Below the pieces are notes generated by a model. It made no database searches. It worked only from the letters and a program-made list of their open reading frames with translations, and was not told where the DNA came from. Of a stretch of 64,000 bases of DNA, positions 6,810-27,296 are shown one piece after another. The stretch spans positions 17,703 to 81,702 of the forward strand of contig CAZJNH010000005.1 in NCBI GenBank assembly GCA_964547425.1, in the 5' to 3' direction. Each line of letters starts with the position of its first letter. Position 1 is the stretch's first letter. This stretch comes from an uncultured Candidatus Saccharibacteria bacterium (GTDB lineage: Bacteria; Patescibacteriota; Saccharimonadia; UBA4664; CAZJNH01). The position numbers and the translations under genes are program-made.

Positions 6810-7334
6810 ATGTACACTCTAGGGTCACACTTAGCTAACGCGCAGGTTTTTTCGCTGCAGTCCGGGCACGCTATCGCCAAGGTCAGCGGGCAAATCATTG
6901 AACCCTCGACTCTCGAACTGGCAGCGTTTTACGTTAACTCCCCCAAATCGCCCCAAACCGTTGTCTTGGCGCGGGATATCCGCCGGCTGACACCCGATAC
7001 CGTTGTCGTTGACTCGAGTGAGGACCTAGAAGATCCGGCCGAGATCGTTAGGCTCCAGGAGCTTATTCAGCGTAAATTCTCGCTTCAGGGTATCAAGGTA
7101 GTTAGCGAATCCGGCCAGAAGCTGGGCAAGGTTGGTGACTATACCGTCAGCCTTTCCACCTACAAGGTCCAAAAGATCTATGTTAAGCCGTCGTTGATGA
7201 AGGCTTTTCTTGCCAACAGTTTAATCATCGACCGAGCGCAGATCGTTGACGTCACCAACCAGAAAATCACTGTTCGAGACGGAACGGTCAGTGCTAGAGG
7301 CATGGCATCGATTAAGGCTTTGCCGACTGATTGA
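6810..7334 (+). CDS. PRC-barrel domain protein (tandem PRC domains)
   Basis: 174-aa ORF with two repeats of the PRC-barrel-like pattern. A terminator hairpin follows. Confidence 0.6.
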   Translation: MYTLGSHLANAQVFSLQSGHAIAKVSGQIIEPSTLELAAFYVNSPKSPQTVVLARDIRRLTPDTVVVDSSEDLEDPAEIVRLQELIQRKFSLQGIKVVSESGQKLGKVGDYTVSLSTYKVQKIYVKPSLMKAFLANSLIIDRAQIVDVTNQKITVRDGTVSARGMASIKALPTD

Positions 7335-7544: not shown

Positions 7545-8219
7545 CTAGTCAATTTCTAGCTCGGATAAAGCTGTTTTTACCTGCGAATAACTAAAGCCCT
7601 GTTTAACTAAATACTCGATGAGTTTTGGCTGATCTCTTCGAGCCTGAGCGATCTGTTCAGGGCTTTTTGTTGTTGAGGCCTCAGAGCCGAAGGCCTGGTA
7701 CTTTACCAGGTTCAGTTTTTTGCGCGCGATATCCTTGATTGCTTGGGTCTCGGCCTCCTCATCCACCTCAGACAATGCCGACTCAATCGCGACCTCGTCC
7801 ACACCTTTCTGCCGCAACTCGGATAGTAACTTCCGGCGGCTGGCCGGTTTCAGCAGCCGCCGGCTTTCGACCCAGGACTTGGCAAAGCCTTCATCGCTCA
7901 ATAACCCCTGCGACAATAGCCGCTCGGTAACCAGCTCTATTTCTTCGACCGGATGGCCTTTCTTGAGCAAATGGTCCTTTGTTTCTTTGGCCGACCGCGG
8001 CCGAAAACTCAAGTAGTGGATGGCTTGGTCATACACCTTCGATTGGCTCGACAAGGCCTTCAGCTTAGAAAGTTGGTCGTCGTCCAGCTCGTCCCCGCGA
8101 TTGATGGCAGACGAAACCAATTCGGCTTCAGGCAAAGAGAAGCTATACTCCCCATCAACAAAAATAGAGTAGCGGTTTTGGCGTTTTACCTGCTGCTCTA
8201 TTTTTGTAATCTTCGGCAT
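7545..8219 (-). CDS. recX: Recombination regulator RecX
   Basis: Three-helix repeat protein directly downstream of recA; its size and position are typical. Confidence 0.8.
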   Translation of the reverse strand: MPKITKIEQQVKRQNRYSIFVDGEYSFSLPEAELVSSAINRGDELDDDQLSKLKALSSQSKVYDQAIHYLSFRPRSAKETKDHLLKKGHPVEEIELVTERLLSQGLLSDEGFAKSWVESRRLLKPASRRKLLSELRQKGVDEVAIESALSEVDEEAETQAIKDIARKKLNLVKYQAFGSEASTTKSPEQIAQARRDQPKLIEYLVKQGFSYSQVKTALSELEID

Positions 8220-16094: not shown

Positions 16095-17894
16095 TTATAT
16101 TTCGATGACGACGGGGACGATCATCGGGGAACGTTTGGTTTGCTTGTAGAGGAAGTCGCTCAAATCGTCGCGGAGGCGTAGTTTAAACCGGTTCCAGTCG
16201 TTGGGTTTGTTGGGGCTGGCCTGGCGCTTAGCAAAAGCCTGGCGCACTTCGGCGCGGGCTTTGGCGATCAACTCCTCGTTTTCCTTCATATAGATGAAGC
16301 CGCGGGAGATGACATCAGGGCTCGTAATCATCCGGCCCGTCTTTTTCTCAACGGTCGCAACGACTACGAATATGCCATCCTTAGCCATCGCCAGCCGGTC
16401 GCGAAGGACGATGCCTTCCACGTCACCTACTCCCGAACCATCGATCATAATCATCCCGGCCTTCACACTTTCGCCTTTTTTAGCGACACCGGGCTGGGCA
16501 AGCTCCAAGACATTGCCATTATCCAAGACGAATACATTTTTTAATTCAATGCCATTTTTAGTCGCCAGTTCGGCGTGGCGCATCAGGTGATGGAACTCGC
16601 CGTGGATCGGCACAAAGTACTTCGGATGGATCAGCTTAATCAGCTCTGCCAGATCATCCCGGCTAGCGTGGCCAGAAACGTGCAAAGGGCCGCAGTCGTC
16701 CAGCTGTCGGTGGATGTGCTGGAAGACCTTGGAACCTTCGCGCAGCAAGCCATCGACCGTATGGACCACCGAAACTTCATTTCCGGGGATCACACTCGAA
16801 CTCATAATCACGCTGTCGCCCGGCTTAATCTTGATAAACGGATGGTCACCGGTCGCCATTTTGTTTAAGACGGAGTTGATTTCACCCTGGTGTCCGGTGC
16901 ACATCACAGCCACCGTCTTGTCGGGCATCTTGGCCATATCCTGCAATCTAATGATTAGCCCGGCCGGGATGCGAAGGTAGCCGAGTTTGACCGCCAGCTC
17001 GACGTTGGCCAGCATTGAGCGGCCAGCGAAGGCCAGCTTGCGGTTGGTCATCTCGCACGCCTTAATTACTCCCTGCATCCGGTGGATGTTACTGGAAATA
17101 GCCGACACAATAATCCGGCCTTTAATGCGCTTAAACAGCTCCTCAAAGCTCGGTTCAACGACCTTCTCGCTCGGGGTCCGGCCGAGCTGTTCACAGTTGG
17201 TACTGTCGCTCATGAGCAGCAGTACGCCTTGCTTGTCGGCAATCTCTTGCAGCCGAGGGAGGTCCATTAATTTCCCATCGATCGGCGTACGGTCGAGCCG
17301 CCAGTCGCCGGTGTGGACGATCACTCCGACAGGAGTTTCGATTACCACGGCACAGGCGTCCGGAATCGAGTGGGTTACCCTGACCAGTTCAATCTTGAAG
17401 ACGCCCAGCTGAATTTTTTCGTGTTTATCGGGGTCGATTACCCGCATCACCGGCTGAGTTTTGAGCCGAAATTCGACCAGTTTTTTCTCGATCATACCGG
17501 CGGTAAAGCGCGACAAATATAAAGGGGCCTGGACTTTCGGCAAGACGTAAGGTATGGCGCCAATGTGGTCTTCGTGAGCGTGGGTAATGATGTAGGCTTT
17601 GACCTTGTGCTTGTTCTGCTCGAGGTAGGTAATGTCGGGAATGACGTAGTCGATCCCCGGCTGGGAGTCGTTGGGGAAGGCAAAGCCGGCGTCGACCACA
17701 ATAATGTCGTCACCGTATTCGATTGCCATCATATTTTTGCCGACCTCGCCCAAGCCGCCGAGCGGAATTACGCGGACAGTCGGAACACGGTTGGCCACGT
17801 TGGCCTGCCTCGGTTGAGGCTGGGGATTTTGATTTGGTTTTGGAGCTGCATTTTGCCCCTGGGGCTGCGGTTTAACCGCAGTTGTTGGATTCAT
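16095..17894 (-). CDS. rnj: Ribonuclease J (metallo-beta-lactamase/beta-CASP)
   Basis: HAHEDHIG motif, beta-CASP region, 599 aa with a Pro/Gln-rich N-terminal extension. Confidence 0.85.
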   Translation of the reverse strand: MNPTTAVKPQPQGQNAAPKPNQNPQPQPRQANVANRVPTVRVIPLGGLGEVGKNMMAIEYGDDIIVVDAGFAFPNDSQPGIDYVIPDITYLEQNKHKVKAYIITHAHEDHIGAIPYVLPKVQAPLYLSRFTAGMIEKKLVEFRLKTQPVMRVIDPDKHEKIQLGVFKIELVRVTHSIPDACAVVIETPVGVIVHTGDWRLDRTPIDGKLMDLPRLQEIADKQGVLLLMSDSTNCEQLGRTPSEKVVEPSFEELFKRIKGRIIVSAISSNIHRMQGVIKACEMTNRKLAFAGRSMLANVELAVKLGYLRIPAGLIIRLQDMAKMPDKTVAVMCTGHQGEINSVLNKMATGDHPFIKIKPGDSVIMSSSVIPGNEVSVVHTVDGLLREGSKVFQHIHRQLDDCGPLHVSGHASRDDLAELIKLIHPKYFVPIHGEFHHLMRHAELATKNGIELKNVFVLDNGNVLELAQPGVAKKGESVKAGMIMIDGSGVGDVEGIVLRDRLAMAKDGIFVVVATVEKKTGRMITSPDVISRGFIYMKENEELIAKARAEVRQAFAKRQASPNKPNDWNRFKLRLRDDLSDFLYKQTKRSPMIVPVVIEI

Positions 17895-17916
17895 AAATTA
17901 GTTAATATTTCCTTTC

Positions 17917-18546
17917 TTAAATTTCTAGTTTCATATTCTTAATTGGTTTTGATTCAGGTTTCATCTCATTGATTTGCTTAAGGATCGCCGGAATCTTGGA
18001 GAAGTCGGAGATCAAAGTCTGCTTCATCGATCCGTTATAAAGAGCCGCAGCAGGGTGAAATAAAGGGAGATAAACTCTACCGTTTTTTTTCATCGGGTGA
18101 CCGTGCACTTCGCTAATCCGTTTGTCTGGCAGAAACACGCTCATAGCGTGGCGGCCAAGGAAGACGGTCAGCTTCGGTTGGATAATGTCGAGTTGCTGCA
18201 TTAAGTACGGCATAAACGCCTCGCGCTCCTCCGGCTCAGGATCCCGGTTGTTCGGCGGGCGGTACTTCACAATGTTGGTGATGTAAACTTGCTCGCGTTT
18301 GAGACCGATTGTGCCCAGCATTTCGTTCAGAAACTTGCCGGCCGCTCCCACAAACGGCTTGCCCTGCTCGTCTTCTTGCTTGCCCGGAGCCTCACCTATA
18401 AAGACGATCTCGGCATCTGGCGACCCATCGGCGAAGACCAGTTGCGTCGCGCCGTCACGCAGCTGCGGACAGACGTTGTCCTTCTTGATCTGCTCTTCGA
18501 CCGCGGCCAAAGCCGCAGCCTTATCTTCACTACTCATTTCGGGCAA
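17917..18546 (-). CDS. Uracil-DNA glycosylase, family 4
   Basis: GEAPGKQEDEQGKPFVGAAGKFL is the family-4 UDG motif. Confidence 0.8.
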   Translation of the reverse strand: MPEMSSEDKAAALAAVEEQIKKDNVCPQLRDGATQLVFADGSPDAEIVFIGEAPGKQEDEQGKPFVGAAGKFLNEMLGTIGLKREQVYITNIVKYRPPNNRDPEPEEREAFMPYLMQQLDIIQPKLTVFLGRHAMSVFLPDKRISEVHGHPMKKNGRVYLPLFHPAAALYNGSMKQTLISDFSKIPAILKQINEMKPESKPIKNMKLEI

Positions 18547-18588
18547 AGCCAGGCCTTCGATTTCGCTCAGGCTAGGCTTTGATCAAAA

Positions 18589-20694
18589 TTACTGGTCGAC
18601 GGCTTTTTTGGAGAGCTTGAGACGTCCTTGGGGATCAATCTCGGTTAACTTAACCTTTATGATATCACCTTCCTTCAGCTCATCCTCAACTTTCTCAACC
18701 CGGTGGTCGGCGATCTGTGAGATGTGTAAGAGGCCGTCTTTGCCCGGCATAATCTCTACGAACGCGCCAAAGTCTTTGATCGAAACGACTTTGCCTTCGT
18801 AGATCCGGCCGATCTCGGGGTCTTCGGTCAGACCCTTGATCCATTCAATCGCCTTTTCGGCGGCGGGCTGGTCATTTGATGCAATCATCACGAGTCCGTT
18901 GTCCTCGATGTCGATCTCGACTCCGGTTTCGGCGATGATCTTATTGATCATTTCGCCGCCTTTGCCGATAACCACTTTGATCTTGTCGGGGCTAATCATC
19001 AGCTTGTGGATCTGCGGCGCGAATTTGGACAGTTCGGCCCGCGGCTTGTCGAGCGCTGCCATCATCTTACCCATAATGTGAGCCCGGCCTTCCTTAGCTT
19101 GAGCTAGCGCATGGCGCATAATCTCGGGCGTAATGCCTTTAACTTTAATGTCCATCTGCAGGGCGGTAATACCGTCGTCGGTCCCGGCCACCTTAAAGTC
19201 CATGTCACCGGCAAAGTCCTCGGCTCCGGCGATGTCGGACAGGATCACAAACTGGTCACCATCGGTCATCAGTCCCATAGCGATTCCGGCCACCGGCTTT
19301 ACCAGCGGCACTCCGGCGTCCATTAGTGAAAGGGTTGAACCGCAAACACTGGCCATGCTGGTCGAACCGTTTGAGGCCAAAGCCTCCGACACGGTGCGAA
19401 TAGTGTAAGGAAACTCCTCGACATCGGGAATCATCGGCTCTAACGCCCGCTCGGCCAAGGCTCCGTGGCCAATTTCGCGGCGGCCCGGGCTACGCATTGG
19501 GCGCACTTCGCCGGTCGAGTATGGCGGGAAGTTGTAGTGGTGCAAATAGCGTTTGGTAGTGTCCTCTTCCATAGTGTCGATCAACTGGGCGAAACTCGTT
19601 GACGCCAAGGTCGTAATGTTCAGGATCTGCGTAGTGCCTCGAGTAAACAGCGCCGAACCGTGGGTCCGGGGCAAAACTCCGACTTCGCAGGTAATCGGGC
19701 GAATCTCGGTGGTCTTGCGGTTGTCCGGCCGGTGGCCTTCGGAGAGAATCGCCCGGCGGATTTCTTTGTCGATAGCTTTGTCGAAAGCCACTTTAATCTG
19801 GTCGATCGCGTGATCACCTTCGAATTTGGCGATGACTTCTTTGGCTAGATTCCCCAGTGTGTCGTGGCGGGTGTACTGGTTCTCGTGGCGAACGGCGGCG
19901 CCCAGCTTGTCTTTGAGGTAATCGTCGACTTGCTTGGCTAGGCTCTCATCAACCTTATAAAGCTCAAATTCCTTCTCTTTGACGCCTAGTTCCTTGCGCA
20001 TCTGCTCCTGCAGCTCGATCACCGGTTGGATGGTCTTGTGCGCCAGCTCAATAGCCTTAATCATGGTCTCTTCATCGACTTCGCTGGCCCCGGCTTCGAC
20101 CATCATAATGGCGTCCTTAGTGCCGGCAACGGTCAGGTCGAGTTGGCTGTTTTCCAGCTGTTCGGTGGTTGGGAACGGCACGAGCTCGCCGTTAACCAGT
20201 CCGACCCGGATGCCGGCAACCGGGCCTTCAAAGGGCGCGCCGGACAGGTTTAGAGCCGCCGAAATGGCGGTGATGGCAATGATGTCAGGTGAGTGGATTA
20301 AGTCGGCCGACAACACCGTCGCCACGCCCTGAACATCGTTGCGGTAGCCTTTGGGAAACAATGGCCGGATCGGCCGGTCGATTAAGCGCGCCGATAGCGT
20401 TGCGTGCTCGCTGGCACGGCCTTCTCTTTTAATAAAGCGCGAGCCGGAGATTTTGCCGGCGGCGTACATCCGCTCTTCGTAATCAATCAAAAGCGGGAAA
20501 AAGTCGATGCCTTCGCGCGGCTGGTTAGCCACCACAACGGTGCCCAAAACCACCGTATCGCCATAGCGGACGGTCACGGCGGCGTCGGCCAAAAAGGCCA
20601 TTTTGCCCGTTTCGATTGTTAGTTTGCGTCCCGCGAATTCGGTTTCGAATCGCTTAATATTGTCCGCGTCGTGCGGACCAATCAGGTTTTCCAT
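18589..20694 (-). CDS. pnp: Polyribonucleotide nucleotidyltransferase (PNPase)
   Basis: 701 aa with two RNase PH domains plus KH and S1 domains. Confidence 0.95.
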   Translation of the reverse strand: MENLIGPHDADNIKRFETEFAGRKLTIETGKMAFLADAAVTVRYGDTVVLGTVVVANQPREGIDFFPLLIDYEERMYAAGKISGSRFIKREGRASEHATLSARLIDRPIRPLFPKGYRNDVQGVATVLSADLIHSPDIIAITAISAALNLSGAPFEGPVAGIRVGLVNGELVPFPTTEQLENSQLDLTVAGTKDAIMMVEAGASEVDEETMIKAIELAHKTIQPVIELQEQMRKELGVKEKEFELYKVDESLAKQVDDYLKDKLGAAVRHENQYTRHDTLGNLAKEVIAKFEGDHAIDQIKVAFDKAIDKEIRRAILSEGHRPDNRKTTEIRPITCEVGVLPRTHGSALFTRGTTQILNITTLASTSFAQLIDTMEEDTTKRYLHHYNFPPYSTGEVRPMRSPGRREIGHGALAERALEPMIPDVEEFPYTIRTVSEALASNGSTSMASVCGSTLSLMDAGVPLVKPVAGIAMGLMTDGDQFVILSDIAGAEDFAGDMDFKVAGTDDGITALQMDIKVKGITPEIMRHALAQAKEGRAHIMGKMMAALDKPRAELSKFAPQIHKLMISPDKIKVVIGKGGEMINKIIAETGVEIDIEDNGLVMIASNDQPAAEKAIEWIKGLTEDPEIGRIYEGKVVSIKDFGAFVEIMPGKDGLLHISQIADHRVEKVEDELKEGDIIKVKLTEIDPQGRLKLSKKAVDQ

Positions 20695-20790
20695 TTACTC
20701 CTTTAATTTTGGTGAGTAAGTTTCAGGGTCCAGACCCGCCTCGGCGGATCAAAACTCTGCCACTTACTAACCTCTAATTATTTAATGTGC
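20695..20790 (-). promoter_or_regulatory. pnp leader with long stem-loop (candidate RNase III/autoregulatory site)
   Basis: Nested inverted repeats GUAAGUGG...CCGCC-GAG-GCGGG...CUUACUCACC lie between rpsO and pnp. Confidence 0.4.
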
Positions 20791-21057
20791 TTAGCGCCGA
20801 AGATCGAGCTTTTTGAGGATCGCCGTGTAGCGCTTGATGTCGGTCTTTTGCAGATACTCGAGCAGACTGCGCCGTTTGCCGACCATTTTGACCAAGCCGC
20901 GGCGGCTGTGCTCATCCTTTTTGTGGGTCTTCAAGTGCTTGGTCAGTTCTTTGATTTTCTCGGTGAAAATCGCGACCTGAACCTCCGGTGAACCGGTGTC
21001 TTTCTTGTGGGTCGCAACCCCGCTGATTACTTTGGATTTTTCGGCGGTTTTTAGCAT
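20791..21057 (-). CDS. rpsO: 30S ribosomal protein S15
   Basis: Conserved ...[20 protein letters not shown].... ORF-track start trimmed to the internal Met (MLKTAEK). Confidence 0.85.
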
Positions 21058-21163
21058 CGCAATGGGTAATTCTACCAGTTCCGCTCTCACGTTTCAACCA
21101 TTAGGGTTAACTTGATAATTGCGTTTGCGGGAGTCGGCCAAGTGCCGACCCCCGCTGTGTTCC

Positions 21164-21415
21164 TCAGTCCGTCATGAGGCGATCCTCAGTTAATGCGAAC
21201 AACCATAGCATCTTCGCATGACGCGGAGAGGTTACGAGAAGTCGCGCTTCCTCCGCCGAGATGCCAGCGAGACGGATCATCTCTAGCAAGCGGCGAGGTG
21301 TAGGAACGGAACTTCTGTGAGGCGTTGAGGCATCGAGCGCCGACTGAATACGATCTAGGTCATCGGCCGAGAGATCGTCGTCGAGGGCGCGCTCGAGCAG
21401 TTCAATAGCGGTCAC
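21164..21415 (-). CDS. Small acidic protein (83 aa), function unknown
   Basis: GTG start preceded by a GAAAGGAAAG RBS. It lies downstream of copy 1 of the 28-bp promoter-like motif. GC is higher than in flanking genes. Confidence 0.45.
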   Translation of the reverse strand: MTAIELLERALDDDLSADDLDRIQSALDASTPHRSSVPTPRRLLEMIRLAGISAEEARLLVTSPRHAKMLWLFALTEDRLMTD

Positions 21416-21558
21416 TGTCTTTCCTTTCGTTTCACGGAAATGAACAGGGTCGCTTTAATAGGAGGTGTGTCTGACAATGTGGTCAGTATTACACGCAAAA
21501 CTCCTCACTTGAGGGGACATTTGAAAGAGCGTAGAGCGTAATTAGTTTACACTATTTA

Positions 21559-21586
21559 TGCTTATCTGTCAATAGCTGTTATGGTT
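21559..21586 (-). promoter_or_regulatory. 28-bp repeated promoter-like motif, copy 1 (TGCTTATCTGTCAATAGCTGTTATGGTT)
   Basis: The minus strand reads TTGACA-17-TAAACT. The same sequence recurs at 22280..22307 with 1 mismatch. Confidence 0.5.
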
Positions 21587-21663
21587 ACCTTTCGTCCTTT
21601 TGGACTCATCAGAGTGAACACGCATTCACTGAGGTTGCCCGGTTTAACCCCCGGGCTGGGCTT

Positions 21664-21894
21664 TCAGTCGAATACGAAACCAATTCGTTCGTAATCTTGC
21701 TTTCGTGAGTAAGGCGCGCCCAGTAGGATGCGCACTTCTTCCCAAAAGTGATGGACGCTCTGCACCGTAAAGAGCTCTGTGCCTGGAGCGGGCTGGATGG
21801 CTTCACCCACAACAGGCAAACGCTCCCAGGGGTGATCTTCCAGAACGAGTTCGCCCCAGCCGACCTCACAATCGATGTACAAGACCAGTTTCAT
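21664..21894 (-). CDS. Small protein (76 aa), function unknown
   Basis: ATG start 8 nt after an AGGAGG RBS that overlaps the stop of the upstream ORF. Confidence 0.45.
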   Translation of the reverse strand: MKLVLYIDCEVGWGELVLEDHPWERLPVVGEAIQPAPGTELFTVQSVHHFWEEVRILLGAPYSRKQDYERIGFVFD

Positions 21895-21906
21895 TTTCCC
21901 CACCTC

Positions 21907-22224
21907 CTAGCCTTCTCTGTCGAGCTGGATCCGACAGTGGATCAAGACGTCGTGTCCGTTCACGATATCCGGACAACTTGGTTTGCCGTGGAAGGTCCCC
22001 GAACGTTCGTGGGTTGTGCCATCCGGACGCTGGTAAACACCCAGGAAGCTGCCGGTCTTTACCCAAGTGGTAGACGCAGGCTGGATCGGCACTGGACTAG
22101 GAGTCGGTACCTCCCGGTGCGAAGCCGCGCCGCCAAGGCCGATGATGGCGAATCCGCCGGCAAAAGCGGCGATCGCCACCCATACCGCGATCTTGCGCAA
22201 CTGCTTTTTTCTGCGGTAACGCAT
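21907..22224 (-). CDS. Small membrane-anchored protein (105 aa; basic N-terminus, one TM helix, exposed C-terminal domain)
   Basis: ATG 6 nt after an AGGAGG RBS, about 35 nt downstream of motif copy 2 (minus strand TTGACA-17-TAAGAT). Confidence 0.5.
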   Translation of the reverse strand: MRYRRKKQLRKIAVWVAIAAFAGGFAIIGLGGAASHREVPTPSPVPIQPASTTWVKTGSFLGVYQRPDGTTHERSGTFHGKPSCPDIVNGHDVLIHCRIQLDREG

Positions 22225-22279
22225 CCCATCCTCCTGCGTTTGAATATGTCGAAGAGCTCACGAGATCTTACATTAAAAC

Positions 22280-22307
22280 TGCTTATCTGTCAATACCTGT
22301 TATGGTT
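22280..22307. promoter_or_regulatory. 28-bp repeated promoter-like motif, copy 2 (TGCTTATCTGTCAATACCTGTTATGGTT); possibly divergent promoter
   Basis: Minus strand: TTGACA-17-TAAGAT. Plus strand: extended -10-like TGTTATGGT upstream of the ORF at 22326. Confidence 0.5.
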
Positions 22308-22325
22308 CGTGATAGGATTAGATTT

Positions 22326-22562
22326 ATGCATTGGCAGGACATTGTATTGGCAGCTGGATCGTTCGTTTTTGCCGTGGCCTTAATTCCTACAGTATTAAGC
22401 AAAGAGAAGCCGCCACTATCGACCAGCCTGCTGACCGGCATAACCTTGCTGGTATTTGCGGTCGTCTACGCCACTCTCTCATTATGGCTATCCTTCTTCA
22501 GCACCTGTATAACGGCCGCGCTTTGGCTGACGATCGCGGCTCAAAGACTGATTAAAGTCTGA
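22326..22562 (+). CDS. Small integral membrane protein (2-3 TM helices), function unknown
   Basis: ORF 22302..22562 trimmed to MHWQDIVLAAGSFVFAVALIP.... The hydrophobic segments support coding. The 3' end overlaps truB by about 22 nt. Confidence 0.4.
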   Translation: MHWQDIVLAAGSFVFAVALIPTVLSKEKPPLSTSLLTGITLLVFAVVYATLSLWLSFFSTCITAALWLTIAAQRLIKV

Positions 22563-23203
22563 TTTATTTGTTCGGCGGAGGTATCGAGATCAACCGCATC
22601 CACGAGCTTAAAGTCACCGATTTCGGCTCGAGCGAGTTTCGATAAATATGCGCCTGCGCCGAGTTTTTGGCCAATATCTTGCGCTAAAGATCGTATGTAA
22701 GTGCCGCTTGAAACCTTGGCGGTAAAAGTGATCAGCGGATAGCGGTAATCGTTTAGTTTGGTGCTATGAATAGTTACTTTTCTCGAAGGGATTTCAACTT
22801 CTTGGCCTTTGCGGGCCAGTTTATAGGCCCGCTGGCCACCGACTTTGATGGCCGAAAATTGGGGCGGAGTTTGGTCTTGTTGACCAACAAATGAGTTCAA
22901 TACGGTTTCGACTTTTTTGGCCGTCGGGACATCATTATTTATTTTGTTCAATTCGCCCTCGGCATCGCCGGTAGTGGACTCAAAACCTAACGTCAGTTCG
23001 GCCTCATAAACTTTATCGAGTATGGAATAATTGCTGGCGGCCTTCGTCGCTGACCCGAATAACATTATCATCAAACCGGTCGCGAGAGGATCCAATGTCC
23101 CCGCATGCCCTATCTTCTTGAACCCGGTGATACGCCGAAGCTTGCGGATCACATCAAAAGACGAGATCCCCTTGGGCTTATTCACCAGTAGAATTCCATT
23201 CAT
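22541..23203 (-). CDS. truB: tRNA pseudouridine(55) synthase TruB
   Basis: GHAGTLDPLATG catalytic motif. Confidence 0.85.
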   Translation of the reverse strand: MNGILLVNKPKGISSFDVIRKLRRITGFKKIGHAGTLDPLATGLMIMLFGSATKAASNYSILDKVYEAELTLGFESTTGDAEGELNKINNDVPTAKKVETVLNSFVGQQDQTPPQFSAIKVGGQRAYKLARKGQEVEIPSRKVTIHSTKLNDYRYPLITFTAKVSSGTYIRSLAQDIGQKLGAGAYLSKLARAEIGDFKLVDAVDLDTSAEQINQTLISL

Positions 23204-23220
23204 AAAGTAACTCTACTGGT

Positions 23221-23327
23221 CAAACTCTAAGATTCAAACTCTAAGTCCTAAGTAAGTTTCAGGATTAAAGTCTTAAGTCTTTGAACTTTAATCTTACTTA
23301 GAGTTTAGAACTTAGTTCTTAGAGTTT
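23221..23327. repeat. CTAAG-unit palindromic intergenic element (copy A)
   Basis: The AAACTCTAAG units form a long imperfect inverted repeat with CTTAGAGTTT units. Related copies lie at 47380..47491 and 59272..59332. Confidence 0.6.
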
Positions 23328-24399
23328 ACGGCTCCAGGAAGCTGGCGAGTCCAGACTTGATGTGGTCAGGGAGCTCGAACTCAATTCTAGCTTCAGATTC
23401 CAGATCTTCGGCGGGTCCTTCGGCTTCCACTCTCGGTTGGGCTATTACCTCTGGCCGCTCTTCCATCTTCTCGGTGGGTTGAGGTTTGTCTTCAGACTTC
23501 GGCGGCTCAGCCTTCTCTGCCTTCTCGGCGCTGGCTTCTGGCAGCTGTTCTTTCTTCTGAGGCTCTGGATTCTTCAACTCGGCCAACTTCTTCAGCTCCT
23601 GCTGATTCTTCTCAGCTTGCTGCTGATGATCAGTGGCTGGTTCATGATGCCCAAACAATCCTTTGACTACCTTTGGCTGGTCAGCACCCGCGGCTATTAA
23701 CTGCGCTGAGAGAGTCAAAGATTTAGCCGTAGTGTGAGGGGCGGTGAAACGATCCGTTGATGCATACAGGCCGGCTAGCAGGGTTGTCGCGATCTCCTCA
23801 TCCAGGCTAACCTGCAAAGATTCCGCCAACGCGGCTAGAATCTCGCACAAACTGGCGGCCTGGCCATCGATTAAGTTAACCGCCGCGAAGTTCTCGTTTG
23901 AGCGATGGAAATCGATGTTAATCATCGGCACCTTGGCCGTGAATTCAGGGTGAGCCGAGATAACCTTGTCGATCCGGTCGCGGGCAGGAACACCCAAAAC
24001 GATGGCCAGGTCGTAGTTGTACTGCCCATGGTCAAACGTGACGTCGCCTTTATCAAAGCTGCCCGAGAACGGAGTAATAAATAAGTTCAGTTTGCCGTCT
24101 TCAATGGTGTAGCGCAGTTTGTCGATCTCGGCTTTAGATAAGCCCAACCGAATAATGAAGTCCCTCGAACCGCCTAGCTGCTTCTCGAGCTGATCCAGGG
24201 CGAGGAAGTTCAGTTTGTGGGGCAGTTGGTCGGAGATGACCGCGTTCACCCGCTTGCCCAGCTTGCGCAAAATCAACATCATCGCCAAAACCGCCGCGGC
24301 TTGGTCGGGCGTTGGCCGGTGGCCGGCGGTAACTAGAATCGTCTCGGCCTGTTTTATGGCTTCGGACGCTTGCTGTTTGGGATTTACGGTTTGTTCCAT
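23326..24399 (-). CDS. DHH/DHHA1 phosphoesterase (NrnA-like nanoRNase/pAp phosphatase) with Lys/Glu-rich C-terminal tail
   Basis: DHH-family motifs are present. Start trimmed to MEQTVNPK, which is preceded by a GAGGAAG RBS. Confidence 0.7.
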   Translation of the reverse strand: MEQTVNPKQQASEAIKQAETILVTAGHRPTPDQAAAVLAMMLILRKLGKRVNAVISDQLPHKLNFLALDQLEKQLGGSRDFIIRLGLSKAEIDKLRYTIEDGKLNLFITPFSGSFDKGDVTFDHGQYNYDLAIVLGVPARDRIDKVISAHPEFTAKVPMINIDFHRSNENFAAVNLIDGQAASLCEILAALAESLQVSLDEEIATTLLAGLYASTDRFTAPHTTAKSLTLSAQLIAAGADQPKVVKGLFGHHEPATDHQQQAEKNQQELKKLAELKNPEPQKKEQLPEASAEKAEKAEPPKSEDKPQPTEKMEERPEVIAQPRVEAEGPAEDLESEARIEFELPDHIKSGLASFLEP

Positions 24400-24512
24400 C
24401 TGGCTTCCTCGAAAAATACGATGGTCAAGAGTATCAAAAAACCGCCTTTGAGTCAACCATAAAAGAAATCCCGCACCCTTCTTACGAAAGGTGCGGGACT
24501 TGAGCCCCTCCC

Positions 24513-24845
24513 CTAGACGGGCTCAACCACGGGCCGCCGGTCCGGTCTGGACAGATAGCCGCCCTTTGGTTTCTGTATCAGGCCGAGGTAACGACGCAGA
24601 TCGCGCCTGTCCTGTTCAGTAACTCCGCCCCGGATGCCGTACTCCTCGTCGATGCCTTCCCACAAACAGTCCAGGCTGACATCACACGTTCGGCAAACCG
24701 CCTTCGCGGCCGCTATCTGCAAGAGCGCCGGCCCGGTAGTTCCGGATGGGAAGAACAGCTCCACATCCATCGTCTTGCACAGGCCCCGGCTCCAAACACT
24801 GCCCGACACACAGGATTCCTGCAGTTCCTGCTCGGTTGTCGCCAC
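24513..24845 (-). CDS. WhiB-like (Wbl) Fe-S transcription factor
   Basis: Four Cys in the WhiB arrangement (C...DVELFFP...AKAVCRTCDVSLDCL...GIRGGVTEQDRRDLRR). Confidence 0.7.
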   Translation of the reverse strand: MATTEQELQESCVSGSVWSRGLCKTMDVELFFPSGTTGPALLQIAAAKAVCRTCDVSLDCLWEGIDEEYGIRGGVTEQDRRDLRRYLGLIQKPKGGYLSRPDRRPVVEPV

Positions 24846-24966
24846 TGCACCCCTCTCGGTTCGTGCCTCCCCACTACCGTTTGGCTGGAAAATAATACTC
24901 CCAACTCGCTTTGTTGTCCAGATACTCCTTTACAAAGCCCCTTCTGTAAGATAGACTTTTCGAGTT

Positions 24967-25284
24967 ATGCCGATCATCAAATCAGCAATTAAGCGCGCGA
25001 AGCAGTCAGAAGTCCACCGCTTGCGCAACCTCAAAGTCAAAACCGCCATCAAAAAAGATATGCGGGCGGTTCTTGACGATGCCGCGGCCAAGGACGTCAA
25101 TGCCAAATTAAGCGCCGCTTTCTCGAAGATCGACAAAGCCGTCAAAACCGGCCTGATCCACAAAAACACCGCTGCCCGCCGCAAATCCAGGCTGGCTCGA
25201 ACCGTCAATCTATCCGCCAAAGCCAAGCCGGCGGCCAAAGCTACTGCTCCAACGAAGACTGCACCCGCCAAAAAGGCGGAATAA
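24967..25284 (+). CDS. rpsT: 30S ribosomal protein S20 (with Ala/Lys/Pro-rich C-terminal tail)
   Basis: [21 protein letters not shown]... is a typical S20 N-terminus. Confidence 0.9.
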
Positions 25285-25475
25285 TGGCTGATCGGGAGGG
25301 TCCGGTCAGGGAAATGATCGAACTGACCGAACAGTTGGAGCGGCATCTTAAACTGCTACGTGATTACGCCGCTTCCCCGGGTGACTTGTGGCTGGCGCGC
25401 GGCGAACTCGCGAAGGCTAACGCCGCGCTGGCTGAAGCCGCCAAGCTTCTTAATGAAATTGAATCTATCGATTAA
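25284..25475 (+). CDS. Possible small helical protein (63 aa) coupled to rpsT
   Basis: The ATG overlaps the rpsT stop (TAATG). The sequence is helical and charged, with a convergent 11-nt overlap with holA. Speculative. Confidence 0.3.
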   Translation: MADREGPVREMIELTEQLERHLKLLRDYAASPGDLWLARGELAKANAALAEAAKLLNEIESID

Positions 25476-26400
25476 CCAGCTGGCAAACGCGATAAATTAA
25501 CCGCTCAACCAGCACCTCGGCCTCACCCAGGCCGCTTTTTATTTCGTACTCAGTTTCCAGAGACAGCAGGAAAGCCTTCTTGAGAGTTTCCTCCGAGAAT
25601 TCACCGCGCTTGGCCATGGCTTTACCGGCCACAAACGGCGACATCCCGGCCTTTTGGGCCAGTTCGTCCGGCGTGATAGTCCCCGCGGTTTTGGCCAGCA
25701 ATAAGTTACGCAGCTGCCAAGTGACCATTGTTAAAACGTAATGGGCATTCATCTGCTGCTCCAGCAGGTTTCGGTAATCGCTTAAAGCCTGCTTCAGCCG
25801 GCCGGCCGACATCGCCTCCACCAGATCAAAAATAGTCTGGCTGGGGCTTTCAACCACCAACTCCTCAACCTCTTTGAGACCAATCGTCTCGCCAAAGTTA
25901 GCCAGCTTCTGGATCTCGTTGTGGAGCCGCCACTGGTCATCCCCCGTGATATCAATAAGCTTTTTGACCGCCGGCTGATCCGCCTTACTGCCCAGCCTTT
26001 CAAACTCCCGCTTAGTCCAAGCCTCGAGCTTCGGCGGTATCAGGTTGTCAAACTTCACGGTCTGAGCTTTCTTCGATAATTGCTTGAAGTACGAGGTTCG
26101 CTGATCAACCGCGTCGTCATAGAAGACAGCCACCGTAGTGTCTGGGATCTGGTCAATTAATTTACTCATATTCTCGGCCGCGGCTTTGTTTTGACCAAGA
26201 TTCTCGATCACCACCAGCCGGCTGTTGGCCAAAAACGGTACCGAAGTCAGGCTCGCTAGCAGGGTTTGATCGTTGGTTTCGACACCATTTATCCGCTCAA
26301 GCCCCATATCGCCACCGGATTGTTTGACATAAGCATGTGTCATTTCGCGAATCTTCTGCCGCGCCGCGAAGCTGTTTGGCCCGTAGAAAAAGAAAATCAT
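25465..26400 (-). CDS. holA: DNA polymerase III delta subunit
   Basis: Delta-subunit-like AAA+ lid and C-terminal domains. Start trimmed to MIFFFYGPNSF. Confidence 0.7.
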   Translation of the reverse strand: MIFFFYGPNSFAARQKIREMTHAYVKQSGGDMGLERINGVETNDQTLLASLTSVPFLANSRLVVIENLGQNKAAAENMSKLIDQIPDTTVAVFYDDAVDQRTSYFKQLSKKAQTVKFDNLIPPKLEAWTKREFERLGSKADQPAVKKLIDITGDDQWRLHNEIQKLANFGETIGLKEVEELVVESPSQTIFDLVEAMSAGRLKQALSDYRNLLEQQMNAHYVLTMVTWQLRNLLLAKTAGTITPDELAQKAGMSPFVAGKAMAKRGEFSEETLKKAFLLSLETEYEIKSGLGEAEVLVERLIYRVCQLVNR

Positions 26401-27296
26401 TTCGGCGCCTTCTGGCACTTTGGGCAGAAATGGGTGCCGCGGCCGGCTACTCGAATCTTTTTGACCTCGGTGCCGCAAACTGGGCAGGGCTGGCCTTGGC
26501 GACGGAAGACGCGCGCAAGATCCAAGTAATCTCCTTTGCCACCCATATGATTAACGTAATTCCTCACGCTCGACCCGCCATGCTTAATTCCAAGTGTGAT
26601 TATATCTTTGATGGCCTGGTGCAACCGCTTGATCTCAGCCGGGGTAAGTGATCCTGCTAACCGTAAGGGATGAATCTTAGCCAAGTGCAGGCTCTCATCG
26701 GCGTAGATATTACCGACGCCTGAAACCGTTGATTGGTCGAGAATAACAGGTTTGATTGGCGATTTCGGACGGCGTTTGATGACTTTCGTGAAGCTATCAA
26801 GCGTGAAGTCTTTCGATAATGGCTCGGGACCTAATCTGGAAATCAACGGGTCGCGATCTACCATTGATGATTCCACCAGCTTGATCCAGCCAAACTTGCG
26901 TTGGTCGTTAAAGAACAGTTTGTCGCCGGTTTTGAACTCAAAAATTACCCGGGTCGATTTGTCCGGCAACTCGTCAACCATCGATGGCGACGGATGGCCT
27001 CCAACCTTACGGACATTTGACACTTGACCCTTAACCTCTGACTTGTGATCCCAGACCAATTGGCCGGTCATTTTGAGATGCACCAGAAGAGAATGGGAGC
27101 CAGAAAGATTAATGACTAAGACTTTGGCGCGGCGTTCGATACCATCGAACTTCGCGCCGATAACAAGCTTTTTTATCTCTTCGGCGGATGAGTGAAAAGA
27201 CTTGGCCCAGTCGATTTTTACGCCAGAAATCGTCTGGCCAACCAGGCCTTGCTCAAGCCCGCGCTTAATTGTCTCCACTTCGGGTAATTCTGGCAT
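26397..27296 (-). CDS. mutM: Formamidopyrimidine-DNA glycosylase
   Basis: N-terminal PELPEVE, and a C-terminal zinc finger CPVCGTEVKKIRVAGRGTHFCPKCQ. Confidence 0.85.
   Translation of the reverse strand: MPELPEVETIKRGLEQGLVGQTISGVKIDWAKSFHSSAEEIKKLVIGAKFDGIERRAKVLVINLSGSHSLLVHLKMTGQLVWDHKSEVKGQVSNVRKVGGHPSPSMVDELPDKSTRVIFEFKTGDKLFFNDQRKFGWIKLVESSMVDRDPLISRLGPEPLSKDFTLDSFTKVIKRRPKSPIKPVILDQSTVSGVGNIYADESLHLAKIHPLRLAGSLTPAEIKRLHQAIKDIITLGIKHGGSSVRNYVNHMGGKGDYLDLARVFRRQGQPCPVCGTEVKKIRVAGRGTHFCPKCQKAPK

Follow-up and report, generated by a model that had tools for sequence, protein, structure and literature searches.

What occupies the interval between truB and rpsO in a bacterium of the Saccharibacteria, and how might the small genes lying there be expressed? 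The question is raised by a stretch of 64,000 nucleotides (nt) of contig CAZJNH010000005.1, from an uncultured Candidatus Saccharibacteria bacterium, which is called the window here in its full length; coordinates are positions within this 64-kb window unless a relative is named, and the gene strand of the truB-rpsO locus is the minus strand. Its truB-rpsO spacer carries four small open reading frames (ORFs), named o105, o76, o83 and o78p, a repeat present in two copies, each of which reads as a promoter, and a candidate type III hammerhead ribozyme. The explanation we favour, with a probability of roughly 0.6, is that duplicated promoters drive two units of small genes and that the ribozyme processes or insulates the RNA between them.

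The ribozyme lies between the o105-o76 and o83 units, directly 5' of the first copy of the repeat, and was missed in an earlier interpretation of this DNA, referred to below as the sequence-only reading. The lead to it was the string CUGAUGAG...CGAAA, found directly upstream of the repeated motif in the relative L004 and present as the same sequence in the window. With one genome scanned per species, truB assigned the window to the Saccharibacteria/Saccharimonadales, the best relatives being L004 (74% at the amino acid level), L005 (62%), L006 (61%) and L007 (58%); a third copy of the ribozyme, with different stems, sits in the truB-rpsO gap of L007. In full, the element reads 5'-GGGCAACC-U-C/AGUGAA(UGCGUGU)UUCACU-CUGAUGA-GUCC(AAAA)GGAC-GAAA-GGUAAC, where the slash marks the predicted cleavage after C17, between 21631 and 21630 and 33 nt past the o76 stop codon. 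Its core, C3-U4-G5-A6-U7-G8-A9 and G12-A13-A14, is invariant in the window, L004 and L007; the closing pairs A15.1-U16.1, G10.1-C11.1 and N1.1-N2.1 are all present; the cleavage triplet conforms to N-U-H, being CUC in the window and L004 and GUC in L007; and the topology is that of type III, with two stems closed by loops and the third open. The Rfam family RF00008 (Hammerhead_3) matches 21590-21632 (-) at 31.5 bits (E 2e-4) in a local alignment that omits most of stem III, and the isolated 61-mer adopts the hammerhead as its minimum free energy (MFE) fold.

When the three sequences are aligned, the structure comprises 17 pairs with 96% of pair cells paired, and 11 of the 17 pairs change on both sides and stay paired, a count reached by none of 500 shuffles and compared with 0-1 in slid controls (n=3 sequences). 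Covariation of this kind around an invariant core in three species argues for selection on the ribozyme, which we take to be conserved and predict to be self-cleaving. A purpose-built covariance model recovered only the sites in the window, L004 and L007 from 908 kb (the window and the loci of 80 relatives). No second, degenerate ribozyme was found beside repeat copy 2, leaving one ribozyme in the 64 kb, and Rfam returned no other RNA family in the spacer. In each of the three genomes stem III is immediately preceded by a GC hairpin lacking a U-tract, of 6 bp in the window, 10 bp in L004 and 6-7 bp in L007.

The sequence-only reading had been built on the repeat, described there as a duplicated 28-mer at 21559-21586 and 22280-22307 with 27 of 28 nt identical. 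This was confirmed: the 28-mer has exactly these two sites, no other stretch of the 64 kb matches it with up to 3 mismatches, and two matches arose in none of 100 shuffles. The repeat in fact extends to 40 nt (21547-21586 and 22268-22307, 85% identity). Its interpretation as a minus-strand promoter of the form TTGACA-17, correctly placed 5' of the small-ORF units, was likewise borne out, the copies reading TTGACA-17-TAAACT and TTGACA-17-TAAGAT and each scoring 10/12. Copy 1 lies ~120 nt 5' of o83 and shares its first 3-4 nt with the ribozyme, where they make up the distal 3' arm of stem III. The two copies are alike from 14 nt 5' of the -35 hexamer to the final base of the -10 and no further; both keep the hexamers, they agree at 13 of those 14 upstream nt and at the first 8 nt of the spacer, and they differ at 5 of its last 8 positions.

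Comparison with the relatives places these sites in context: the hexamers of both copies lie 17 nt apart, within the 16-18 nt expected of a sigma-70 promoter, and in the correct orientation upstream of a gene, and their positions are conserved, both of them in L004 and the first in L007. Exactly two promoter-like sites (0.6 +/- 0.7 expected) occur in the spacer of L004; both read on the gene strand and correspond in position to those of the window, TTGACG-17-TATACT overlapping the truB stop and TTGACA-16-TAAACT lying 3' of the ribozyme. In L007 the truB stop is likewise overlapped by a site, TTGACA-17-TATTAT. In L004 and L007 the first -35 consists of the Leu-Thr codons of the truB C-terminus, an end that differs in the window. 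Outside its hexamers, the first L004 site is unrelated to the window motif both in its spacer and in its upstream sequence. Since the hexamers keep their positions across species with unrelated spacers, promoter function is supported; and since the first L004 site differs in sequence, the identity of the two window copies is recent, local and lineage-specific. The two-promoter architecture is thus conserved, and identity of sequence is confined to the window lineage. Both o78p and repeat copy 2 are absent from L004, relative to which the window carries an insertion, and the string AGCTCTTCGACA that lies directly 3' of copy 2 is found in L004 directly 3' of the truB-stop promoter. The repeat is most likely a locally duplicated ordinary promoter, and its duplication or replacement would be tied to the insertion of the o78p gene after truB rather than descend from an old shared operator. 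The backing for the predicted promoter function is position and conservation, not a consensus scan alone, and a duplicated promoter by itself is ordinary.

Table 1. Features of the truB-rpsO spacer and its edges (positions in the 64-kb window).
Feature	Position	Strand	Remarks
truB (tRNA pseudouridine-55 synthase)	22541..23203	-	Pfam TruB_N E 5e-51; upstream edge of spacer
o78p, 78-aa small membrane protein	22326..22562	+	convergent with truB, 22-nt overlap of truB 3' end
Repeat copy 2	22268..22307	-	sigma-70-like, -35 at 22288-22293, -10 at 22265-22270; ~34 nt 5' of o105 start
o105, small exported protein with N-terminal membrane anchor (predicted)	21907..22224	-	strong AGGAGGA Shine-Dalgarno
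o76, orphan 76-aa ORF	21664..21894	-	o105 stop codon inside o76 ribosome-binding site
GC hairpin, 6 bp, 8-nt loop, no U-tract	21637..21656	-	directly 5' of ribozyme
Type III hammerhead ribozyme (predicted)	21581..21641	-	stems I and II capped, stem III open; core CUGAUGA...GAAA
Repeat copy 1	21547..21586	-	sigma-70-like, -35 at 21567-21572, -10 at 21544-21549
o83 leader, ~120 nt	21416..21537	-	fold z -2.05
o83, orphan 83-aa ORF, GTG start	21164..21415	-	predicted all-helical
12-bp GC hairpin after o83, terminator-like, no U-tract	21127..21155	-	z -3.4
rpsO promoter-like site TTGAAA-17-TAGAAT with TG	21069..21097	-	downstream edge of spacer

Taken together, these elements suggest a working model for the spacer as a variable accessory slot with two tandem units on the strand of the flanking genes, o105-o76 and then o83, each with its own copy of a near-consensus promoter of the sigma-70 type at its head. 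The ancestral layout would be that of L004 and L007, with a promoter over the truB stop whose -35 is supplied by truB codons; in the window lineage the o78p gene would have been inserted convergently at the truB stop, so that the o105 promoter is now a copy of the post-ribozyme promoter. Transcripts from copy 2 would pass through o105 and o76 and run into the hairpin without a U-tract, after which the hammerhead would fold and cleave itself after C21631. Cleavage would leave the upstream messenger RNA protected by a 3' hairpin and ending in a 2',3'-cyclic phosphate; the read-through RNA downstream would start with a 5'-hydroxyl (5'-OH), perhaps to be removed by RNase J as is the product of the glmS ribozyme. 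Upstream and downstream expression would in this way be parted, leaving o83 to rely on its own promoter 14 nt past the ribozyme, and neither o83 nor, beyond it, rpsO-pnp with a promoter of their own would depend on read-through from upstream. The ribozyme most likely serves to process or insulate RNA that reads through from one unit to the next; in L007, where no promoter follows it, the element may simply cut a polycistronic RNA into units.

It is worth setting out what weighs against this model. For the ribozyme, the Rfam score falls below the gathering score of 48.5 and the L007 copy reaches 23.7 bits; stem III has only 4 contiguous pairs in the window, compared with 7 in L004; and the MFE folds of contexts of 161-601 nt pair parts of the ribozyme elsewhere. 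For the promoters, the region holds 3 promoter-like sites against a shuffle expectation of 2.3 +/- 1.6, which is no excess, and conservation of the 14 nt preceding the -35 might reflect an operator rather than a by-product of duplication. The ribozyme of L007 is not followed by a promoter, so the adjacency of ribozyme and promoter is no general rule.

The sequence-only reading took the motif for a shared promoter/operator and inferred co-regulation by one factor. Spelled out in full, this alternative has a promoter and operator bound by one dedicated factor, which would co-regulate o105-o76, o83 and perhaps o78p, with o83 possibly serving as the autoregulator and further members of the regulon lying elsewhere. 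A promoter alone would not require the two copies to agree so closely upstream of the -35 and through the first 8 nt of the spacer, the gene strand carries three imperfect direct 7-8-mers (ATAACAG, ATTGACAG and ATAAGCA), and the predicted all-helical o83 lies directly under copy 1. A search of the 64-kb window, however, yielded the two known copies and no others, even when either half of the motif was sought with 3 mismatches, and scans of metagenome and viral collections with the 17-mer core gave 67 matches (60 and 7, respectively), all of them chance and none with flanking similarity. The promoter before the o105 homologue in L004 lacks the motif outside its hexamers, o83 has neither a DNA-binding family match nor a fold match, and the upstream edge of the repeat lies inside stem III, a position that fits the endpoint of a duplication better than a binding site. 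Within the 64 kb and the collections scanned, a regulon is not supported; we consider a dedicated factor unlikely, whilst noting that an operator specific to the window may exist.

Alternatively, the hairpin, hammerhead, promoter, leader and o83 might constitute a discrete, horizontally exchanged cassette, with the ribozyme and hairpin marking its boundary and the 40-nt repeat being a footprint of recombination rather than the outcome of regulatory selection. The window and L004 agree at 167 of 172 nt (97%) over a tract that runs from the hairpin across ribozyme and promoter and ~70 nt into the leader, compared with 73% identity in truB, 71.5% in the DHH gene and 68% in o105, and the genes left of the ribozyme differ between the species. 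A third sequence, L001, is a mosaic: it resembles the window left of the ribozyme and carries L004-type variants to the right, namely a promoter spacer shortened by 1 nt (17 to 16 nt), a T replaced by C and, immediately 3' of the -10, a tandem duplication of 8 nt, GCTCTACG (L001:1719-1800 compared with window 21538-21566); both the deletion and the duplication occur in L004 as well. Both species occur in sample SRR9179560. The near-identical block, the mosaic and the shared sample indicate recent recombination between co-resident species, and the gap of L007 offers two more ORF cassettes framed by repeated, strongly structured elements. Yet homologous recombination between co-resident relatives explains the mosaic without dedicated mobility; no integrase, transposase or phage gene is found among the ORFs listed for 17000-27000, there is one ribozyme only and there are no target-site duplications, and the block is known from this one locus, its right-hand end lying beyond the point at which the L004 contig stops; exact look-ups with rpsO, aimed at that end, returned no record. 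On balance, exchange as a discrete cassette seems improbable.

The L007 gap merits description in its own right. It contains orphan ORFs of 123 and 129 aa, mutually unrelated, each framed by the same repeated elements (L007:7555-7680 and L007:8090-8215), within which three repeats can be distinguished: D1 (7559-7596 and 8094-8131), D2 (7600-7636 and 8134-8170) and D3 (7140-7170 and 7648-7678). The D1-D2-D3 junction is predicted to form a very stable branched RNA (-65 kcal/mol, z -9.0), and the pairing of D2 with D3 uses G.U pairs and exists on the sense strand only. The junction matched no Rfam family and the repeat had no match in the viral scan; it could be a processing site of the RNase III type or a cassette boundary. 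A bolder generalisation, which we hold to be quite unlikely, is that in one clade of Saccharimonadales the truB-rpsO spacer is an array of small-gene cassettes with structured-RNA boundaries (hairpin and hammerhead in the window and L004, hammerhead and very stable repeated stem-loops in L007), whole cassettes of ribozyme, promoter and ORF being swapped between co-resident species. If true, an epibiotic bacterium would possess a system that exchanges cassettes delimited by ribozymes and encoding small proteins of the envelope and cytoplasm.

It is very unlikely that a small duplication left the repeat as a neutral remnant, that the sequence resembling a hammerhead is inactive and that not all of the small ORFs are genes, for although o76 and o83 are orphans with poor structure predictions and the ribozyme scores below the Rfam gathering threshold, the compensatory changes around an invariant core, the retention of the hexamers next to diverged spacers, the third-position polymorphisms of o83 described below, the strong ribosome-binding sites before o105 and o76, and the homologues of o105 and o78p all speak against it.

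The favoured arrangement, with a ribozyme between promoter-headed units, has precedents and departures among known systems. In bacteria, hammerheads are known on the flanks of single genes or of short runs of small ORFs that lack conservation, and processing of polycistronic RNA has been proposed as their function (PMC3088659; PMC6155905); their role is still open, and the examples are usually linked to prophages (PMC6155905). The window ribozyme resembles the type III hammerheads of bacterial and phage intergenic regions (Perreault et al. 2011, PMC3088659; de la Pena et al. 2017, PMC6155905) in its identical core, capped stems I and II and open stem III, and in its intercistronic location on the coding strand, with small ORFs that lack conservation on either side. 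It fits this established pattern and departs from it in four respects: it is single rather than clustered; it lies in a housekeeping locus (truB-rpsO-pnp) with no integrase or phage genes among the ORFs listed for 17000-27000; it has a promoter within 14 nt; and its host belongs to the Saccharibacteria (Patescibacteria, or candidate phyla radiation), for which a literature search found no report of a hammerhead. A prophage-associated hammerhead cluster was considered and rejected, given the single ribozyme in 64 kb, the lack of PHROG matches for the four spacer ORFs and neighbours such as RNase J, pnp, rpsO, truB and mutM. Among viral sequences, a scan with the stem II pattern found a type III hammerhead in the IMG/VR contig UViG_3300027816_000524 (L155:6563-6623, minus strand), which scores 46 bits with the covariance model, shares stem II and its loop, GUCCAAAAGGAC, with the window, differs in stems I and III, and is intergenic, immediately preceding the start of a gene; this is probably a phage hammerhead of independent origin.

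For the fate of the cleaved RNA, the closest parallel is the glmS ribozyme, whose 5'-OH product is degraded by RNase J1 (Collins et al. 2007, as summarised in PMC3328962). As there, the predicted cleavage would give a downstream fragment with a 5'-OH, and the organism encodes an RNase J (16095-17894; TIGR00649, 571 bits with a cutoff of 400), providing a route by which read-through RNA may be destroyed; unlike glmS, the window ribozyme has no ligand-sensing domain and lies in a 3' untranslated region (UTR) or between genes rather than in a 5' UTR, and its link with RNase J is one that we infer. Retrozymes and related circular-RNA elements (PMC4918200, PMC7761336) are alike in having a type III hammerhead beside a direct repeat that flanks a unit of ~700 bp; in those elements, in contrast, a ribozyme lies inside each repeat copy and two cuts release the unit, whereas in the window copy 1 only adjoins the ribozyme and the unit encodes proteins with bacterial ribosome-binding sites. 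A retrozyme-like circular-RNA element was rejected, as repeat copy 2 has no adjacent ribozyme.

RiboJ, an engineered ribozyme insulator, is a hammerhead-type self-cleaver that frees downstream expression from the context of the upstream transcript. RiboJ sits 3' of its promoter and trims the 5' UTR; the window ribozyme, by contrast, is 5' of a promoter and would trim read-through RNA. What the locus offers is a single conserved ribozyme in a simple chromosomal setting, preceded by a hairpin and one cassette, followed after 14 nt by a promoter and close to two genes of RNA decay, pnp and RNase J, a layout that predicts 3'-end formation together with insulation of the downstream unit, and that would add a catalytic RNA to the repertoire of small non-coding RNAs known for the Saccharibacteria.

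The setting of these elements also needed revision. It had been proposed that the spacer is an island of higher GC content that replaced ribF. There is indeed no ribF between truB and rpsO in the window, and the content of the spacer is lineage-specific, with almost no homologues for three of its four ORFs; displacement of ribF did not survive comparison with relatives. Both genes lie on the locus in ~38 Saccharibacteria-type relatives, where 25 bp to ~2.8 kb separate truB from rpsO; ribF occupies none of these gaps, which recurrently hold proteins resembling pilins (N_methyl motif, T4SS_pilin) and other small proteins of the envelope. Within the comparison, ribF (FAD_syn and Flavokinase) lies in the gap only in a Eubacteriaceae outgroup; the window keeps the order and strand of truB, rpsO and pnp seen in the Firmicutes synteny truB-ribF(ribC)-rpsO-pnp but, like all the Saccharibacteria relatives examined, has no ribF in the gap. 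With ribF missing throughout and the occupants so varied, the spacer is better described as a variable slot in the phylum than as a ribF-displacing island. Nor is it a compositional island, a possibility rejected on its GC of 0.527 in a window of 0.528 (pnp 0.557; only truB is lower, at 0.474). Type IV pilin-like (N_methyl) or T4SS_pilin-like membrane proteins occupy the slot in many other Saccharibacteria, including those at L015:6672-7154, L040:6721-7317 and L028:6787-7332 and their relatives; throughout the phylum, genes for the cell surface seem to accumulate there, and in these epibionts the spacer is a fast-evolving site for small envelope proteins.

Turning to the small ORFs themselves, the three minus-strand frames of 83, 76 and 105 aa are present as first described, and Pfam, PHROGs, NCBIfam and PADLOC gave nothing significant for any of the four, nor did any match a DNA-binding family. 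The 105-aa product had been called membrane-anchored, consistent with its charged N-terminus and the 20-residue hydrophobic helix that follows. Its only close homologue is a protein of L004 (46%, E 7e-18), exhaustive HMMER searching having added only weak matches to repeat units: the C-terminal 45 aa bear a weak likeness to a CPD..HDV unit of a giant protein. Residues 58-98 align at 30-39% with this unit, G-x-LG-x-Y...CPD-x-V-x-HDV, which is repeated at least 10 times in the 2753-aa protein P0005, and the likeness suggests that the C-terminal domain of o105 may be a small disulfide-bonded extracellular module. The overlap of stop codon and ribosome-binding site noted for the o105-o76 pair is likewise real (TAGGAGGTG...ATG).

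In a collection of 5.8 billion proteins, neither o76 nor o83 had any match but its own sequence. Structure prediction with AlphaFold2, which had been suggested for the small proteins and was run for these two, was of partial use: the model of o76 is unusable (predicted local distance difference test, pLDDT, 51), and that of o83 shows five helices (pLDDT 65) with no Foldseek fold match and no sequence match in the PDB. All three population single nucleotide polymorphisms in o83 fall at codon position 3, so it looks coding. Its leader had no match in Rfam or in the viral scan; the ~70 nt that can be compared with L004, whose contig ends there, are near-identical. Within the leader, 21459-21524 (-) holds an ORF of 21 codons (ATG TCC CCT ... 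TAT TAA) with no visible Shine-Dalgarno, together with a GAGGAG...CCUCCU complementarity.

The plus-strand membrane ORF proposed earlier is real, with an adjusted start: four homologues at 45-64% identity share an MHWQD N-terminus, which places the start at ATG 22326 and the length at 78 rather than 86 aa. They make o78p a member of a small conserved family, and they occur in other genomic contexts (for example, after a tRNA_bind gene), and at this locus tblastn found o78p only in L001-L003 among 83 loci. The latter are short contigs from runs SRR9179560-62, the only sequences returned for the window locus by exact-protein look-ups.

Around the spacer, the minus-strand order is RNase J, uracil-DNA glycosylase, pnp, rpsO (Pfam Ribosomal_S15, E 1e-34), the spacer, truB and a DHH-family protein, with WhiB, rpsT, holA and mutM as further neighbours. 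The DHH-truB spacer (23215-23328, minus strand) forms one imperfect hairpin of ~105 nt from AGAGTTT/CTAAG-type repeats (-35.6 kcal/mol, z -2.7). An exact 13-mer, CCTGAAACTTACT, occurs at 20715-20727 and 23251-23263 (-), 20-50 nt 5' of the pnp and truB start codons, and has two weaker copies near 49-50 kb; the total of 4 matches was reached by 4 of 100 shuffles, a marginal excess. Lastly, a gene for a WhiB-family transcription factor lies 1.3 kb from truB (24513-24845, minus strand; Pfam Whib E 1e-14, and several phage WhiB PHROGs), in a stretch with a local GC of 0.62 and strongly negative GC skew. WhiB proteins are typical of Actinobacteria and their phages, and the hosts of cultured Saccharibacteria are Actinobacteria; it is possible that the gene was gained from a host or a phage.

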